A DNA stretch of 64,000 bases from Escherichia phage pEC-M719-6WT.2. The notes beneath the pieces are model-generated. The model did not search any database, was not told the origin of the DNA, and worked only from the letters and a program-made list of their open reading frames with translations. The stretch's first letter is position 1; each line of letters starts with the position of its first letter. Position numbers and translations under genes: made by a program. Below, piece by piece: positions 2,156 through 50,173 of the stretch. The stretch is from sequence record OQ845958.1; one strand, 5' to 3'.

Positions 2156-3024
2156 TATACCGGTACTCCGATTGTTTGGGCGGAAATTACTTTAATAGCG
2201 AGCTTCATGGCAGTGGGTGAGCTTATAGCCGCCTGTATGATGTCCTGGTTATCAATTCTAAAATCGATAGCATATATCTCATCATCGTCGTTAGCTTGTC
2301 CACGTCTGATTACAGCGTATTCTGTGCTATATACCTTGCGGTCCTTAAGGTCGATGTAAAGTAACATTTCTGATGCTTTGTATTTAGTTTCGTCTGTTGA
2401 AATAGCCGTAAGCATCAATTTGATAGTTTTATAATCTGCGCGGTAAGCGATTGGAATATCACGAACAACCGAGCTCATATTGTATGTTTTGTCGAGCAAT
2501 ACAGATTGGTTACCAAACATACTTTCAATTTTGTAGTCCCAGGTCCCTACGCCGTTAGCATCGTCAATACACCACAATGTAATTTTTGTATAAGGCTGAG
2601 TAAATTTCATTTTGTTCGTTGCAGCGGTCAGGAATGAATCCGTGCCTTGTAGTTCAACTTCCAGAGGCATCGAGGTGGATAATGAACCATTGGAGTTAAT
2701 AAAGATAACACCTTCGCCTGCTTTACCTTTTGCAATTCTTGCGGTGATAACACCTTCGGCAGTATTGACATCACGCATAGAACCGAGAGCAACAGTTGAG
2801 TTCCATTCGATGATATTTGTAGCTTTTTGATAGTACCCAGTCGCATGAAGGACCTGGGTGTTTTCTCCATTGTTCACAGAGTACAGACGCTGGTCGCCAA
2901 ATGTATTATACAAACTGTCTAAATCCACGTTCAGTTTACGACCGCCTTCATATAGAATATCACCGGTGCTGGCGTTACCAATCTCGCCGATGTCTACTAA
3001 TAATTTTGGGGTTTGATTAATCAT
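2155..3024 (-). CDS. 9: baseplate wedge protein gp9 (long tail fibre socket)
   Basis: 289-aa ORF, T4-like length and position; preceded on minus strand by TATAAATA late promoter. Confidence 0.8.
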   Translation of the reverse strand: MINQTPKLLVDIGEIGNASTGDILYEGGRKLNVDLDSLYNTFGDQRLYSVNNGENTQVLHATGYYQKATNIIEWNSTVALGSMRDVNTAEGVITARIAKGKAGEGVIFINSNGSLSTSMPLEVELQGTDSFLTAATNKMKFTQPYTKITLWCIDDANGVGTWDYKIESMFGNQSVLLDKTYNMSSVVRDIPIAYRADYKTIKLMLTAISTDETKYKASEMLLYIDLKDRKVYSTEYAVIRRGQANDDDEIYAIDFRIDNQDIIQAAISSPTAMKLAIKVISAQTIGVPV

Positions 3025-31011: not shown

Positions 31012-31591
<580 letters not shown>

Positions 31592-31647
31592 TGTACAAGC
31601 AGGTTGAAATGAGTTATGATTATCCCATCAAACAAAAGGAGATAATC

Positions 31648-32106
31648 ATGACTACTATCGATTCAAGTGTTTACATTCGCCGCAATAAACTTCGTCGCAT
31701 TTTTGAAACGGAGTTCCTCAAAATTAATAATGCTATCAACAAGGCTTGTAAAGAAGCAGGCCTTGAGGCATTCTTCATTAAGTACAGTCCGCACCTGTTG
31801 GACCGTGCAATCCAACGTGAAATTGATGAACAATATGTTTTTGACTTGTTTGGAAAAATCACACCACATGTAAAAGAAATCGTTGAATTCCTGGAGATGA
31901 AACCACTCCCGGAAGTTGAAGCACAAATTGACCCGAATGTGAACTATCGTCCACTTCGTCTGGAAATCACAGACAAGAACCTGTGGTTAGGAATGACAGT
32001 TAACCCAGCTCTTCCTGGGAAGTCTCCGACCATGTGTTGTCGTATGGCGTTTGTTAACTCTAATCGTCTGGAAGGAAAAATTAGCACAAAAGTGATTTAT
32101 ATCTAA
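31648..32106 (+). CDS. regB: site-specific endoribonuclease RegB
   Basis: ...VYIRRNKLRRIFETEF...KYSPHLLDRAIQREIDEQYVFDLF... matches recalled T4 RegB; 152 aa. Confidence 0.85.
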   Translation: MTTIDSSVYIRRNKLRRIFETEFLKINNAINKACKEAGLEAFFIKYSPHLLDRAIQREIDEQYVFDLFGKITPHVKEIVEFLEMKPLPEVEAQIDPNVNYRPLRLEITDKNLWLGMTVNPALPGKSPTMCCRMAFVNSNRLEGKISTKVIYI

Positions 32107-32116
32107 TGGGGAATTC

Positions 32117-32659
32117 ATGAAAAAAGTAATCGCCACCTTACTATTGACAGTTAGTATGTCTGCCCATAGCGTAGAGCCTACTTTCAGTAATGAACAAATG
32201 GAGAACCTCCAATATGCTTATGCGTTTGGAGAACAGTTCCAGAAAAATGGTAAGTACAAAGAAAATCCGCACCAACATAATGGTTTGGGATATATCATGG
32301 CTGGTTTAACCTGGCAGGAAAGTTCTGCTGGGATTAATACTGGATTAAATAAAGATAAGCATCATGCATATGGTATATTCCAAAATTATCTTCCAACCGT
32401 GCGCGAACGCGTGAAACAGGTTGGGTGGACAATGACAGATAAAGAAATAATCAAGATGATAAGCAAGAGAGAGAACAGTGCACGCTGGGCTTATATTGAG
32501 CTTTCATATTGGTTGAATATTCATAAGGGGGATATAAGGAAAACACTATCATCATATAACGCAGGGTGGAATGTGAAAGCTGGTAATAAGTATGCTTCAC
32601 AGGTCCTAGAAAAAGCTAACTACTTAAAATCACGAGGCCTATTAAAAACGGTGGATTAA
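32117..32659 (+). CDS. secreted lytic transglycosylase-like protein
   Basis: N-terminal signal peptide; SLT motifs WQESSAG, AYGIFQ, SYNAGWN. Confidence 0.6.
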   Translation: MKKVIATLLLTVSMSAHSVEPTFSNEQMENLQYAYAFGEQFQKNGKYKENPHQHNGLGYIMAGLTWQESSAGINTGLNKDKHHAYGIFQNYLPTVRERVKQVGWTMTDKEIIKMISKRENSARWAYIELSYWLNIHKGDIRKTLSSYNAGWNVKAGNKYASQVLEKANYLKSRGLLKTVD

Positions 32660-32661
32660 AA

Positions 32662-33021
32662 ATGGTAAGAGTTATCACTTTAGCCATAGGGTTAGTATTC
32701 AGCATGGGAGGAATAGCTTCAGTACAGAGCGACGACAACAACAGCATCGTAGAATATGCAACGAGGACGGCTAAAGATTATTGCGCATCAAGCAATGTGG
32801 ATTGTGTAATCCGGTTCAGTGCCAAGCTCACCGCGGCATATAAAGATGGTCAAAATGATGTTGAACATACGCTTTTGAAAAAGAATGTATTATCCAACAA
32901 ATATGAAAAGAAATTATTTGAAATGGATTGCATTCTATCAAGTGCAAAATATAAGGCGGCCTGCACCAGTATGGTTGACAGGTTAGTGGATTCATATAAT
33001 AGAGGATTGAACTCTAAATGA
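32662..33021 (+). CDS. secreted protein of unknown function
   Basis: signal-peptide-like N-terminus MVRVITLAIGLVFSMGGIASVQS. Confidence 0.5.
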   Translation: MVRVITLAIGLVFSMGGIASVQSDDNNSIVEYATRTAKDYCASSNVDCVIRFSAKLTAAYKDGQNDVEHTLLKKNVLSNKYEKKLFEMDCILSSAKYKAACTSMVDRLVDSYNRGLNSK

Positions 33022-33482
33022 TTACCCAGTATATTAAGGGCGATATCGTCGCCCTCTTTCTTAGCGGTAAAAACATTGCTCATGGCTGTAATTGCTTCCA
33101 TACAATGGGCTCTGGAGTAGCTGGACAATTGGCGAAGGCTTATCCAAGGATTTTAGAAATAGACAAAACCACTACTGAATATGGTTCTCGTGATAAATTA
33201 GGCGATATGTCTATTGTTTTCAAATATTCCCGTGGTCCGTCAACTTGCTTTAATCTTTACACCCAATATGAACCAGGACCAAATCTCGACTATCACGCTT
33301 TAGTAAATTGTATGGTAGAATTAAATCGAGTCCTGAGTGAAGGAACACTATTCCGACCAGTGGTTTATATCCCACGGATTGGATGTGGTATTGCAGGTGG
33401 AGATTGGGAAAAGGTCTCTATGTTAATTGATATTTTTACCCCTGACATTGATTTGATAGTGGTGGATTATGAGCCTGAATGA
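33018..33482 (+). CDS. macro-domain protein (ADP-ribose binding/processing)
   Basis: macro motifs: IKGDI, NCFHTMGSGVAGQL (cf. NAANxxLxxGGGVxGAI), PRIGCGIAGG (cf. PAIGTGxxG). Confidence 0.65.
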   Translation: MITQYIKGDIVALFLSGKNIAHGCNCFHTMGSGVAGQLAKAYPRILEIDKTTTEYGSRDKLGDMSIVFKYSRGPSTCFNLYTQYEPGPNLDYHALVNCMVELNRVLSEGTLFRPVVYIPRIGCGIAGGDWEKVSMLIDIFTPDIDLIVVDYEPE

Positions 33483-33645
33483 AGAACAAGAACGTATTGT
33501 TGAAAACTTAGATAAGCTTATTCATTTAGCTAAAAAGGTGGCAGCTTTACAACCCCACGGCAGTAAAGAAGATTATGACCAAGCTGCCGAGGCTCTCAAG
33601 GCCCAACGAAAAAGAATTTTGGCTATGGACGGAATTGAATTATGA
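33469..33645 (+). CDS. small hypothetical protein (58 aa)
   Basis: below ORF-track cutoff; ATG overlapping macro gene 3' end, stop overlaps next ATG (ATGA). Confidence 0.4.
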   Translation: MSLNEEQERIVENLDKLIHLAKKVAALQPHGSKEDYDQAAEALKAQRKRILAMDGIEL

Positions 33646-33848
33646 GCCAAGCCCGAATTCTTAAAACGGCCAAATGTGAAAAATGTGAATGGCCAGTAAT
33701 CGCAGCTTTATGCAACGATGAAATGGAATGTGAATTTGATTACTGGTGGTACTGTTCCAATAAAGGGTGCATTAATCATAAGGGTGAAGGTTTTCATTCT
33801 GGTTATTGCGAACATCCTAAATTTGTGCGATATGGTGAACCGAAATGA
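33642..33848 (+). CDS. small Cys-rich protein
   Basis: 68 aa with CEKCEW...CEFDYWWYC...CINH...YCEHP metal-binding-like pattern. Confidence 0.5.
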   Translation: MSQARILKTAKCEKCEWPVIAALCNDEMECEFDYWWYCSNKGCINHKGEGFHSGYCEHPKFVRYGEPK

Positions 33849-34030
33849 GTTTAAGTATTAGTCAGAAAAGTAGATTGTTTGAGCTTATCCATGAGCTTTT
33901 GGAAGAGCACGCAGAAGCAAACGCTTTTTACGATGAATATGGCCCGATAGACGCCGACCATCAGGAAGAATTTGCTAATCGATTTGATGCGAAAGAAAAC
34001 GAATTAATAGCTTATGTGAATACGCTTTAA
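33845..34030 (+). CDS. hypothetical protein
   Basis: 61-aa ORF, ATGA overlap. Confidence 0.45.
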   Translation: MSLSISQKSRLFELIHELLEEHAEANAFYDEYGPIDADHQEEFANRFDAKENELIAYVNTL

Positions 34031-34039
34031 GAAGGTGAT

Positions 34040-34612
34040 ATGGCGAGTTTAATTTATCATTACGCAGCAATGAATGCAGGCAAAACAGCTTCATTGCTGA
34101 CTGCAGCTTATTCCTATAAAGAGCGTGGAATGAGTGTGCTTTTGCTAAAACCTGTTATTGATAATCGGGACTCGGAATCTGAAATCAAATCACGTATTGG
34201 TATTAGCCAGGAAGCAAACCTGGTAACGGCCGACATGAACCTGTTTGAATTCTATAAATGGGCCGAGTCTCAAAAGGATATCCATTGTGTCCTGGTCGAT
34301 GAAGCTCAATTTTTGTTACCAGAGCAAATTGACCAGTTAGCTCAAGTGGTTGATAATTACAATATCCCCGTTATGTGTTACGGGTTAAGAACAGATTTTC
34401 GGGGTCAATTATTTCCCGGTTCAGCCAGACTTCTGGCTATTTCGGATAAACTGGTTGAATTAAAGGGCGTCTGTCATTGCGGCCGGAAAGCAACCATGAC
34501 CGCGAGAGTAATCGACGGTGCTGCTGTAAAGGACGGCGAGCAAGTGTTAGTCGGTGGGAATGAATCGTACGTATCTTTATGCAGAAAACATTGGCTCGAA
34601 TTAACAAGCTGA
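34040..34612 (+). CDS. tk: thymidine kinase
   Basis: MASLIYHYAAMNAGKTASLL...VCHCGRKATMTARV... matches recalled T4 Tk. Confidence 0.95.
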   Translation: MASLIYHYAAMNAGKTASLLTAAYSYKERGMSVLLLKPVIDNRDSESEIKSRIGISQEANLVTADMNLFEFYKWAESQKDIHCVLVDEAQFLLPEQIDQLAQVVDNYNIPVMCYGLRTDFRGQLFPGSARLLAISDKLVELKGVCHCGRKATMTARVIDGAAVKDGEQVLVGGNESYVSLCRKHWLELTS

Positions 34613-34619
34613 GGTTCGC

Positions 34620-34895
34620 ATGGTATACAAGGTTTGGACGTATATCTCTATTTTTGTTATTGCTGGAATTGCATTTATTCCCACACAAACAGATAGCGAG
34701 AGATATGAAAGGGAAATTGAAATAGTAGCAAGCACGTACCATTCTGTTAATAAAGAATGCCCGAATAAAAATGGAATAAATTTACAAAAATCACATTATA
34801 TGCTGACTGTTACTAGTCCAGTGCAAAGAATATGGGTTGATAGACATTTTTCTGATTTATTTGCAATGTATTGTTTCAAATTTAAAAGATTATAA
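34620..34895 (+). CDS. membrane-anchored hypothetical protein
   Basis: 91 aa, N-terminal TM segment. Confidence 0.5.
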   Translation: MVYKVWTYISIFVIAGIAFIPTQTDSERYEREIEIVASTYHSVNKECPNKNGINLQKSHYMLTVTSPVQRIWVDRHFSDLFAMYCFKFKRL

Positions 34896-34898
34896 ATA
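34891..34898 (+). promoter_or_regulatory. late promoter box TATAAATA upstream of rI
   Basis: exact octamer overlapping upstream stop, about 70 nt before rI ATG. Confidence 0.45.
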
Positions 34899-34970
34899 CA
34901 GTTACTAACTAGTATTCCGCTATGTTAAGGCTGCAAAGCGTAATCATGACCAACAATAAGGAGTCCTTTT

Positions 34971-35264
34971 ATGGACCTTATTCGAGGACTTTCTCTAAGT
35001 CTATTACTAATGGGCTGTTTAGGCCCAAATATGTCCTCTGCTACAGATGGTAAATTTACCCAGTATGCAGATAGTGCGATGCAAATCTATTCGCAATTCA
35101 AAGAACCCAGCGTCGAGCAGTCCGAACAATTTTGGGCTTTTATTAAAACTGAATGGAACAATAAGAGTCAATGTGTAAATGAAATCACATGTCAAATTGA
35201 TGGCCGTGCGGCTGCAGTCGAATACGCTAAATTAATGAAGGTAAAATTGGAAGATGAAATTTGA
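34971..35264 (+). CDS. rI: lysis inhibition regulator RI (periplasmic antiholin)
   Basis: 97 aa as T4 RI; signal-anchor N-terminus; SVEQSEQFWAF and C-terminal KLEDEI resemble recalled T4 RI. Confidence 0.75.
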   Translation: MDLIRGLSLSLLLMGCLGPNMSSATDGKFTQYADSAMQIYSQFKEPSVEQSEQFWAFIKTEWNNKSQCVNEITCQIDGRAAAVEYAKLMKVKLEDEI

Positions 35265-35637
35265 TGATTTCGTAACGGGTCGTGGGTCTGAGGTGGATTC
35301 ATATATTGGGTGGTTGTTAGTCTCTTTGGCTTATTTTAAATCCGCCCATCTTGAAACCAAAAGTTACGCCCGCCATAAAGCTTATGATTTCTACTTCACA
35401 GAAATCCAAGGTCCACTCGACCAGTTCAGTGAGCAATGGTTAGGTTACAGCGGGAAACAATACAAAGCTGCATTACCGTCCGCCTCGGACTTGCCGAAAG
35501 ATACAATTTTGTTTTTAGATGAAATGATTAAAAGCTCGGAAAGAGTCTATAAAGTTGTACCTAAGGCTATTCAATCGACTCTGGACGATATCGTTGGAGT
35601 TTTCTTTCAAACTAAGTATCTGTTAACACTAGAGTAA
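35254..35637 (+). CDS. hypothetical protein
   Basis: 127-aa ORF overlapping rI 3' end; followed by terminator. Confidence 0.5.
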   Translation: MKFDDFVTGRGSEVDSYIGWLLVSLAYFKSAHLETKSYARHKAYDFYFTEIQGPLDQFSEQWLGYSGKQYKAALPSASDLPKDTILFLDEMIKSSERVYKVVPKAIQSTLDDIVGVFFQTKYLLTLE

Positions 35638-35643
35638 TTCAAA

Positions 35644-35673
35644 AGGTCTGCCTTCGGGTGGACCTTTTTTTTT
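35644..35673 (+). terminator. rho-independent terminator
   Basis: 9-bp stem with TTCG tetraloop followed by T9. Confidence 0.75.
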
Positions 35674-42075: not shown

Positions 42076-42291
42076 ATGACTATTTTGATTATCAGCATTA
42101 TTTTTGGTTATCTTGTGATAGGTTTTATTACTACCCTGTTGCTCCACAAGTTTGATAGTCCCTACGAAAGTGGGGACGAGTATGATGCGGTGTTCACAAC
42201 ATTTTGCTGGCCTATATTCTGGGTAGTCGCTGTTATAATGTGTGTGGCCTGGCCTTTTGCTAAACTCTATAAAAAATTATTTGGATTATGA
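42076..42291 (+). CDS. small membrane protein
   Basis: 71 aa from ATG; two hydrophobic segments. Confidence 0.5.
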   Translation: MTILIISIIFGYLVIGFITTLLLHKFDSPYESGDEYDAVFTTFCWPIFWVVAVIMCVAWPFAKLYKKLFGL

Positions 42292-45091: not shown

Positions 45092-45355
45092 ATGTTTAAA
45101 GTATATGGTTATGATTCATCTATTCATCGCTGTGTATTCTGCGATAATGCAAAACGTTTTTTGGATGTTAAAAAACAACCTTACGAGTTCATCAACGTTA
45201 TGCCAGAAAAAGGTGTGTTTGATGATGAGAAGATTGCCCAACTCCTGGCTGCACTTGGTCGCGAATCTCAAATTGGTTTGACCATGCCGCAAGTATTTGC
45301 TCCTGACGGAAGTCATATTGGCGGATTCACTGAACTGCGAGAATATTTTAAATGA
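45092..45355 (+). CDS. nrdC: glutaredoxin/thioredoxin NrdC
   Basis: 87 aa; MFKVYGYDSSIHRCVFCDNAKR...GLTMPQVFAPDGSHIGGF closely matches recalled T4 NrdC. Confidence 0.9.
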   Translation: MFKVYGYDSSIHRCVFCDNAKRFLDVKKQPYEFINVMPEKGVFDDEKIAQLLAALGRESQIGLTMPQVFAPDGSHIGGFTELREYFK

Positions 45356-45519
45356 TTGAATTATTGTTGGGTATTTTGTATCTTATCATCGGTATTGGTT
45401 ATGCTAAGACCCTAGCTAAAATAGATGATTTCGGTGCGGGTGACTTTTGTTGGTGGCTGACGTCTATGATTTGTTGGCCTTTATTTCTGGTTGGTGCTTC
45501 ATTCTGGAACTTTAAATGA
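45352..45519 (+). CDS. small membrane protein (55 aa)
   Basis: ATGA overlap with nrdC stop; hydrophobic; below ORF-track cutoff. Confidence 0.4.
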   Translation: MIELLLGILYLIIGIGYAKTLAKIDDFGAGDFCWWLTSMICWPLFLVGASFWNFK

Positions 45520-49957: not shown

Positions 49958-50173
49958 ATGAATAAATTTCGTAATGCTGTTTCTGATATCCTGGCCAATA
50001 TTACATTTGTCCTGTTTATTGTGTGCCTTTTAATCCTGGTTATCCCATTTGGATTGCTGTTTGTGATGATTGGTGCCCTGAGTACTGAAAAGGGCCTCGA
50101 AGGGTCTGAGTTCGACAAACGAATCCAGGCTGTGCATAGTGTTATTGCTAAAATGATGAAGGTGAAAGAATGA
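49958..50173 (+). CDS. small membrane protein
   Basis: 71 aa from ATG; long hydrophobic segment. Confidence 0.5.
   Translation: MNKFRNAVSDILANITFVLFIVCLLILVIPFGLLFVMIGALSTEKGLEGSEFDKRIQAVHSVIAKMMKVKE

Follow-up and report, generated by a model that had tools for sequence, protein, structure and literature searches.

In the 64,000-nucleotide stretch of DNA from Escherichia phage pEC-M719-6WT.2 that was analyzed here (sequence record OQ845958.1; hereafter the window), the genes vs.1, vs and rI, located between positions 32,117 and 35,264, belong to a conserved T4-type early block (regB-vs.1-vs-tk.4...tk-(orf91)-rI-rI.-1) of a Gaprivervirus-like T-even coliphage. This block encodes four predicted envelope-directed proteins, i.e., Vs.1, Vs, orf91 and RI. 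The overall explanation that we favor, and hold to be moderately probable, is that the block brings together an exported Vs.1 enzyme, a coupled and likewise exported Vs, orf91 and RI; it builds on gene identities, synteny, export-signal features, the GH23 fold and motifs, cysteine conservation and the coupling of vs.1 to vs, all of which were observed or computed here. The only real curiosity of the region, and the one point in it worth an experiment, is the conflict between the name of Vs, annotated as a "valyl-tRNA synthetase modifier", and its sequence.

An earlier note, made from the letters of this DNA alone, had described three genes for exported proteins in this region. All three open reading frames (ORFs) are present at the positions and on the strand that it gave, and all three products carry predicted export signals, but a fourth ORF with a membrane or exported product (34620-34895) had been overlooked. 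The genes for the four proteins and their main features are as follows (aa, amino acids).

32117..32659, + strand: vs.1, predicted exported GH23/family-1 lytic transglycosylase, 180 aa (phrog_600, E 1e-67)
32117..32170, + strand: predicted Vs.1 signal peptide, aa 1-18, MKKVIATLLLTVSMSAHS, predicted cleavage AHS/VE (n-h-c architecture)
32318..32320, + strand: codon of E68, predicted catalytic Glu of Vs.1, in the motif W-Q-E-S-S (alignment, hhalign)
32662..33021, + strand: vs, annotated "valyl-tRNA synthetase modifier", 119 aa (phrog_1256, E 2e-32)
32662..32721, + strand: predicted Vs signal peptide, aa 1-20, MVRVITLAIGLVFSMGGIAS, predicted cleavage before VQ (heuristic, alignment)
34620..34895, + strand: orf91, small predicted membrane protein with 2 Cys (phrog_6298, E 2.7e-37)
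34971..35264, + strand: rI, RI antiholin, 97 aa (Pfam Antiholin, E 2.6e-30; PDB antiholin chains)

Gene identities and export signals

A 4.5-kb query around the locus matched 512 phage records, with the best DNA matches in Escherichia phages ECML-359, UPEC07 and EAWsc9 (96-97% identity over 100% of the query); Shigella phage SP18 (Straboviridae, Tevenvirinae, Gaprivervirus) showed 93% DNA identity to the same query. Positions 31591-35637 (+) of the window are syntenic, gene by gene, with SP18 and with T4 (58.8-62.7 kb), the order being regB, vs.1, vs, tk.4, tk.3, a small Cys-rich ORF, tk.2, tk, an ORF of 91 aa (orf91), rI and rI.-1. A search of NCBIfam found no model for Vs.1, Vs, orf91 or RI.

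Export signals were scored heuristically (n-region charge, an h-region of at least 8 residues, and small residues at -3/-1) and by conservation, with T4 RI, for which the signal is experimentally proven, as a positive control. Both Vs.1 and Vs have a positively charged N-terminal end, then a hydrophobic core and a small-x-small site (MKKVIATLLLTVSMSAHS then VE, and MVRVITLAIGLVFSMGGIAS then VQ, respectively). RI presented an h-region and a small-x-small site (...NMSSA/TDG), and its net n-region charge of 0 (D2, R5) missed the strict cut-off. None of the seven neighboring cytoplasmic ORFs showed a signal-like N-terminus under the same heuristic. At strict cut-offs, signal-like N-termini were found in 36 of 37 Vs.1 homologs, where this character persists despite sequence drift, as well as in 23 of 29 Vs homologs, in all four distant Vs-like proteins and in 24 of 29 RI homologs; the Vs sequences that were missed either fell just under an arbitrary hydrophobicity cut-off or were N-terminally truncated. 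The heuristic and the family conservation thus both bear out the signal peptide that the earlier note had read in the 32662 product, although it had not recognized this gene as vs, the annotated valyl-tRNA synthetase modifier.

The long starts of the three genes are preceded by Shine-Dalgarno-like sequences, i.e., GGGGA 4 nt before 32117, GGTGGA 6 nt before 32662 and AAGGAG 7 nt before 34971. In the SP18 record (GQ981382; vs.1 at 2157-2660 and vs at 2705-3022 in the locus), both genes were started at internal methionines that lack Shine-Dalgarno sequences, which cuts off 13 (vs.1) and 14 (vs) N-terminal residues; the signal peptides are therefore mostly lost from this annotation. The longer SP18 ORFs of vs.1 and vs show Shine-Dalgarno sequences as well as the conserved N-termini. 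Records of this kind, in which vs.1 and vs begin at internal methionines, mask the conflict between the name and the sequence of Vs.

Vs.1 and Vs

Vs.1 shares 66% identity with its T4 counterpart and is a member of phrog_600, a family of unknown function. With 2089 phage records over Straboviridae, Ackermannviridae and Felixounavirus, the Vs.1 family would be among the most widespread uncharacterized enzymes of large myoviruses infecting Gram-negative bacteria. In an alignment of 37 homologs, W66, E68, S70, G86, Q89, N90, Y147, N148, G150 and Y159 were invariant and S69 was nearly invariant, and the motifs W-Q-E68-S-S, G86-I-F-Q89-N90 and S146-Y147-N148-A-G150 were invariant or nearly so. Motifs II and III of GH23 are of the G-L-M-Q and A-Y-N-x-G types, and the alignment contains all of the family-1 signatures, i.e., E-S, G-x-x-Q and (A/S)-Y-N-x-G. 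Using hhalign, E68 was aligned to the catalytic Glu (RQES) of E. coli Slt70 in a weak local match (prob 0.2) that served motif registration only. The Pfam SLT model matched 35 of the 37 homologs at E<=0.01 (best E 1.3e-7), and several of them carry a precomputed PF01464 assignment. These data uphold the reading of the 32117 product as an SLT-type (GH23) protein with a signal peptide; its SLT motif is real, and the catalytic Glu is present on alignment.

The AlphaFold2 (AF2) model of Vs.1 (predicted local distance difference test [pLDDT] score 87.4) shows a lysozyme-like, all-helical fold. Foldseek ranks 1-18 in the PDB were MltD, Slt, Slt70 and goose-type lysozymes, all GH23 (prob 0.89-1.0; template modeling score 0.40-0.53), with weak E-values of 0.05-0.25; the phi6 lysin, which has a lysozyme-like fold, appeared further down at lower probability. 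GH23 includes both lytic transglycosylases and goose-type lysozymes. Sequence and model together point to Vs.1 as a predicted Sec-exported, single-domain GH23/SLT lytic transglycosylase with an intact active site. The similarity of vs.1 to SLT had been described by 2006, when the gene was also proposed to take part in lysis (PMC1524935). The Vs.1 homolog of a Vibrio Ackermannviridae phage (locus L010, 3998-4513) bears the annotation of a membrane lipoprotein, and an ORF with a transmembrane helix comes after it; in Salmonella phage SP116 (Felixounavirus, locus L011, 3501-4049), the homolog lies directly 3' of rIIA-rIIB.

Vs was assigned to its family by the phrog_1256 match and by the precomputed PF26829 assignments of 28/28 homologs, and tblastn with Vs found T4, T2 and the RB phages at approx. 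45% identity. T4 Vs starts with MTKILVLCIGLISFSASASA followed by DTS, which resembles a textbook Sec signal. The cysteines C41, C48, C90 and C101 are invariant or nearly so in the family alignment; exactly four cysteines were found in the mature part of 24 of the 29 aligned sequences (three others have 5, 5 and 2), and all four distant Vs-like proteins retain both the signal peptide and the four cysteines. In the AF2 model (pLDDT 75), Vs is a four-helix bundle with a disordered signal region, and its secondary-structure string would place each Cys pair at a helix-helix turn, the usual place of a disulfide staple. Foldseek with this model gave no informative fold match in the PDB, and its BFVD matches were only other "Vs" proteins and one weak match to a phage "lipoprotein". 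A PDB sequence search with Vs gave nothing useful; metacaspase and ribosomal L6 matches that appeared in the PDB sequence searches with Vs.1 and Vs were set aside as noise.

Vs is homologous to the proteins that follow vs.1 in Krischvirus, Slopekvirus, Pseudotevenvirus and Acinetobacter (Twarogvirinae) phages (hhalign prob 96.5%, E 7e-10), and by these profile comparisons the Vs family is broader than annotated. Judged by its signal and cysteines, Vs looks periplasmic, and it looks co-translated with Vs.1, at odds with its name. The label "valyl-tRNA synthetase modifier", under which the T4 protein has gone for fifty years, turns up among the roughly 1,000 or more phage records that three overlapping searches matched, on a sequence that resembles that of a periplasmic protein.

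The start of vs lies between -8 and +7 nt from the stop of vs.1 in 36 of 39 loci (here with a gap of 2 nt and in T4 with an overlap of 8 nt), and with starts and stops so close, Vs would be translated in tandem with Vs.1. In a second, independent set of 80 IMG/VR loci that were found through Vs.1, Vs was present in 61 and immediately downstream of vs.1 in 53; the loci of this set with Vs.1 but without Vs had no exported gene 3' of Vs.1. When tblastn with divergent Vs.1 queries was used for T4-like loci of Aeromonas and Vibrio phages, the matches listed were enterobacterial phages.

In T4, both vs.1 and vs are listed with early RNA and middle-phase protein in supplements of PMC9697503. Both genes are non-essential in T4 according to the HIDEN-SEQ transposon screen (bioRxiv 10.1101/2025.11.20.689424), of which the following values were taken from Extended Data Table 6, sheet S8 (log2FC, log2 fold change; padj, adjusted P).

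vs: liquid-LB mean insertion reads 26.6; LB vs M9 log2FC -2.19, padj 0
vs.1: liquid-LB mean insertion reads 22.6; LB vs M9 log2FC -0.87, p 0.0055, padj 0.155
regB: liquid-LB mean insertion reads 179
vs.3: liquid-LB mean insertion reads 652
vs.4: liquid-LB mean insertion reads 265
tk.4: liquid-LB mean insertion reads 290

Insertions in vs and vs.1 were approx. 10 times rarer than those in flanking genes in liquid LB, and they dropped further in M9 glucose; rI, sp and imm showed no change in M9. The authors of the screen, who do not comment on the under-representation of vs.1, found that minimal medium made the phage depend on vs more than on any other gene, and they verified the plaque defect in M9 with a vs deletion (bioRxiv 10.1101/2025.11.20.689424). 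The common profile of vs and vs.1 fits a common function. A role of Vs as an obligate inhibitor of Vs.1 (toxin/antidote) was also considered and was down-weighted, as vs.1 insertions are under-represented rather than neutral and many phages have Vs.1 without Vs.

RI, orf91 and the arrangement of the exported genes

The 34971 product is RI of lysis inhibition, as had been proposed: it matched Pfam Antiholin (PF24205) at 104.5 bits against a cut-off of 27 (phrog_1246), and residues 26-96 matched the PDB antiholin chains 6PSK and 6PSH with E-values of approx. 3e-9 (2.6e-9 for 6PSK). All 29 family members keep C68 and C74 of the mature domain. Export and signal-peptide cleavage have been demonstrated experimentally for T4 RI, which is cleaved after A24 and binds the periplasmic domain of holin T (PMC8385771). 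The window RI presents the site SSA24/TD at the position aligned with this cleavage site. It also presents a lipobox-like L12-L13-M14-G15-C16, with R5 in the n-region and no charge at residues 6-15, which agrees with the lipobox rule [LVI]-x-[GAS]-C (PROSITE PS51257-type). The lipobox Cys occurs in the same column in 6-7 of 29 family representatives, including an Acinetobacter phage RI (MLVG/C13), and is absent from T4 RI. The window RI may thus possibly have a lipid-anchored form, and an antiholin of this kind would behave unlike the soluble, short-lived T4 RI.

orf91 starts with a transmembrane or signal-anchor segment of 20 residues. No other N-terminus in the region is as hydrophobic, and a good cleavage site is lacking; orf91 is probably a signal-anchored (bitopic) inner-membrane protein adjoining rI. 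It fills the slot that rI.1 occupies in T4, between tk and rI, and is unrelated to the soluble T4 RI.1. The family was found in 94 phage records (phrog_6298, function unknown), and a homolog lies directly 5' of rI in Acinetobacter T4-like phages (locus L004, 3731-4030).

Using a crude classifier, 9 of the 128 ORFs in the window were signal- or transmembrane-like, and four of these fell within a run of nine genes (hypergeometric P 0.001; P ~0.06 for a scan statistic that corrects for the post-hoc choice of region). Between vs and rI lie seven cytoplasmic genes (tk.4/adfM, tk.3, orf68, tk.2, tk and others), and the exported genes do not form a compact cassette here. Conversely, in 59 of the 80 IMG/VR loci RI is no more than 4.5 kb away from Vs.1, and in Acinetobacter T4-like phages, in which tk.4 to tk are absent from this place, Vs.1, a Vs-like protein, an exported ORF of 141 aa, an orf91 homolog and RI are encoded by five consecutive genes. 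We regard the cluster as real because of this conservation and not because of the window statistics; the clustering that the earlier note had seen thus holds as a gene order conserved over lineages, but not as a compact or clearly significant grouping in the window itself. The pattern fits an old envelope-directed gene set that was split by cytoplasmic genes in T-even phages. A third exported ORF, of 130-148 aa, follows the Vs-like gene directly in many T4-like lineages (e.g., Acinetobacter locus L004, 3306-3731, and loci L084-L087, L091-L093, L095-L097 and L099) and is absent from the lineage studied here.

The remaining features of the block are given below.

31591..32106, + strand: regB, site-specific endoribonuclease, cytoplasmic (Pfam REGB_T4, E 5.7e-72)
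33018..33482, + strand: tk.4, macro domain, T4 AdfM ortholog, cytoplasmic (Pfam Macro, E 9e-7)
34040..34612, + strand: tk, thymidine kinase, cytoplasmic (Pfam TK, E 5.7e-58)
34891..34898, + strand: TATAAATA, T4 late-promoter consensus, 72 nt 5' of the rI ATG (motif scan)
35254..35637, + strand: rI.-1, DUF5856, last gene of the unit (Pfam DUF5856, E 5.9e-31)
35641..35668, + strand: intrinsic-terminator-like hairpin, 12-bp stem and T run, closes the unit (hairpin scan)

regB lies 5' of vs.1 in nearly all Straboviridae loci examined and is a conserved synteny anchor. tk.4 is the first of the cytoplasmic genes that interrupt the exported set; its product matched NCBIfam DarG at E 1.3e-6, far under the model cut-off, and T4 tk.4 has been renamed adfM and shown to be an anti-DarTG2 factor (bioRxiv 10.1101/2025.11.20.689424). 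For T4 rI.-1, a genetic role in the modulation of lysis inhibition has been reported (PMC2962797). The TATAAATA motif at 34891-34898 is the sole copy between 20 and 64 kb of the window, and its window-wide count was not above chance (7 found vs 5.2 expected). Together with the strong terminator-like hairpin after rI.-1, it suggests that late transcription of rI and rI.-1 as a short unit is possible as well. A scan for sigma-70 promoters was at chance (19 found vs 19.1 expected). The early region also contains, in scattered places, further small ORFs whose N-terminal or internal segments are strongly hydrophobic (42076-42291, 45352-45519, 49958-50173 and 19906-20460).

Proposed function of the block and comparison with known systems

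In the explanation that we favor, Vs.1 would be exported via Sec and set free in the periplasm, where it would most likely cut glycan strands of the host sacculus from the periplasmic side of the infected cell. Vs would be exported too, would fold as a four-helix bundle with two disulfides, and would most likely have Vs.1 as its partner or target in the periplasm rather than pair with valyl-tRNA synthetase (ValRS) in the cytoplasm. orf91 would be a membrane accessory adjoining rI, and RI, an exported antiholin that is possibly lipid-anchored here, would bind the periplasmic domain of holin T, leading to a delay of lysis; in T4-like genomes, the gene for this holin, t, maps at a great distance from rI. 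What is said here on the mechanism of RI, on early expression and on the fitness of T4 mutants in vs and vs.1 comes from the literature, and we infer the enzyme activity of Vs.1, the partnership of Vs and Vs.1, and any tie of the pair to RI beyond shared gene order. A more specific proposal, tentative and in our judgment rather unlikely, is that Vs and Vs.1 form a two-gene wall-remodeling module, which would be an ancestral component of the envelope cassette (Vs.1, Vs, an exported ORF, an orf91-type protein and RI) that is contiguous in Acinetobacter phages. If so, the minimal-medium defect of T4 vs would be an envelope or lysis phenotype, and the association with ValRS would be secondary, or would arise only when compartments mix on lysis. 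A periplasmic Vs coupled to a murein-cutting enzyme would offer an alternative and directly testable account of the minimal-medium phenotype.

A number of points weigh against this explanation. The window Vs.1 falls below the Pfam SLT gathering threshold (14.5 vs 21.3 bits, E 0.026), its hhalign match to Slt70 is weak, and PDB sequence searches with it (single sequence and profile; phmmer/hmmsearch) returned nothing useful. The actual export and cleavage of Vs.1 and Vs are predictions, the clustering in the window alone is marginal and only suggestive (P ~0.06), and conserved order is weak evidence of function because synteny is general among T4-like genomes. Vs.1 occurs without Vs in approx. 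19 of the 80 loci (mostly 157-kb Ackermannviridae-like genomes, a Felixounavirus and one T4-like genome), and Vs is therefore a frequent but not an obligate companion. The shared screen phenotype is no proof of a shared function, as vs.1 insertions may be polar on vs, and the authors of the screen attribute the M9 defect of vs to modification of ValRS (bioRxiv 10.1101/2025.11.20.689424). Finally, classical biochemical and genetic work by Marchin and colleagues, as cited in PMC8076793, assigned a T4 ValRS-binding factor of approx. 10 kDa to gene vs.

The annotation derives from that work, and under it Vs would be a cytoplasmic tau factor that binds and modifies host ValRS, with a hydrophobic N-terminus that is unused for export (or a protein that is partly exported) and an accidental adjacency to Vs.1. 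We give this possibility a minor but real chance; it would also agree with the restriction of the T4 vs knockout plaque defect to minimal medium, where translation capacity could matter. The signal peptide, the A-x-A-type site and the four cysteines, which are conserved down to approx. 25% identity and include the Acinetobacter phages, are nevertheless hard to square with a cytoplasmic location, because the E. coli cytoplasm does not allow disulfides to form, and the translational coupling to a predicted exported enzyme likewise argues against it. In addition, the T4 GenBank records hold no note on the assignment of locus vs to the vs ORF, and other ORFs of approx. 10 kDa, i.e., vs.3 and vs.4, are found near T4 vs. 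The predicted mature T4 Vs is 11.0 kDa, and Muller and Marchin reportedly gave, in 1977, a size of approx. 10 kDa for the factor. These sizes are close, and if both belong to one protein, the factor would be the cleaved product, i.e., one that has gone through the Sec pathway. N-terminally His-tagged Vs is described as insoluble in PMC8076793, which is compatible with a blocked signal peptide and is a weak indication. As for Vs.1, a catalytically dead peptidoglycan-binding protein would agree with the sub-threshold Pfam score of the window protein and with a literature that has no activity on record; every family-1 active-site residue is, however, invariant in the 37 homologs, down to 42% identity, which argues for selection on catalysis, and we consider a dead enzyme highly improbable.

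Whether the exported genes form a functional cluster is a more evenly balanced matter, and it falls only a little short of an even chance that they are neighbors solely through kept T4-like gene order, with unrelated jobs for Vs.1/Vs and RI. The seven cytoplasmic genes between vs and rI, here and in T4, the scan statistic, the presence of Vs.1 in Ackermannviridae-like genomes without rI nearby, and the different phenotypes of vs/vs.1 and rI in the T4 screen would all be expected in that case. It is less easily reconciled with the unbroken run of five genes for exported or membrane proteins, Vs.1 through RI, in Acinetobacter T4-like phages, with the Felixounavirus Vs.1 homolog placed after rIIA-rIIB, another lysis-phenotype pair, and with the proximity of RI in 59 of 80 loci. 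The earlier note had also proposed that the transglycosylase and its neighbor remodel peptidoglycan at entry or contribute to superinfection exclusion, i.e., that they keep out secondary phages in the manner of Sp and Imm. Vs.1 and Vs are both made early and are predicted to share the periplasm with the exclusion protein Sp, and they share a block of co-oriented genes with rI, which needs superinfection for its function; all the same, we regard this proposal as improbable. Its entry part is implausible, as Vs.1 is a post-infection product (early RNA and middle-phase protein in T4) and, on the evidence here, no component of the virion, and its Sec signal implies export from the infected cell, so that it could not help the phage's own entry. 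The tail lysozyme gp5 opens the wall at entry in T4. With regard to exclusion, sp, imm and rI were unchanged in M9, whereas vs and vs.1 changed, and a glycan-cutting enzyme would, if anything, weaken the barrier.

Compared to known systems, the closest are T4 vs.1, vs and rI themselves (NC_000866, 59202-62271), which are orthologs in the same order and orientation (Vs.1 66%, Vs approx. 45% and RI approx. 30% identical) with the same signal peptides, catalytic motifs and Cys pattern. The two loci differ in that T4 has the soluble RI.1 between tk and rI where the window has the membrane protein orf91, in that vs.1 and vs overlap by 8 nt in T4 and are 2 nt apart in the window, and in that T4 RI lacks the lipobox-like Cys represented by Cys16 in the window RI. 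T4 RI (PDB 6PSH, 6PSK, 6PX4 and 6PXE; PF24205) shares its family, length, exported N-terminus and two cysteines with the window RI, and its A24 cleavage position is matched by a signal peptidase I-type site. Family-1 lytic transglycosylases (the Slt70 C-domain and MltD) have the lysozyme-like fold and the E-S, G-x-x-Q and (A/S)-Y-N-x-G motifs in common with Vs.1, but the solved members are only approx. 15% identical to Vs.1, which is phage-encoded and expressed early. Specialized exported lytic transglycosylases of the VirB1, P19 and EtgA type, like Vs.1, consist of a single domain of approx. 170-200 aa behind a Sec signal peptide; unlike these enzymes of secretion and conjugation systems, Vs.1 is, to our knowledge, associated with no envelope-spanning machine.

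The likeness of Vs to T4 Spackle (Sp) with the gp5 lysozyme and to the bacterial periplasmic lysozyme inhibitors Ivy, MliC and PliG is conceptual only, i.e., a small exported protein that acts on a periplasmic muramidase or is encoded alongside one; PliG bound to a goose-type lysozyme (4g9s) was among the fold neighbors of Vs.1, but none of these proteins showed sequence or fold similarity to Vs in the PDB and BFVD searches, and the analogy is further limited by the absence of Vs from many phages that have Vs.1. Overall, novelty is low because the genes are already known, and the earlier finding adds little by itself, as it describes anew what is known from T4, in a phage closely related to sequenced ones; the value of the analysis lies in the conflict of a widely copied vs annotation with its sequence, in another possible cause for the vs phenotype, and in the common Vs.1 enzyme family.

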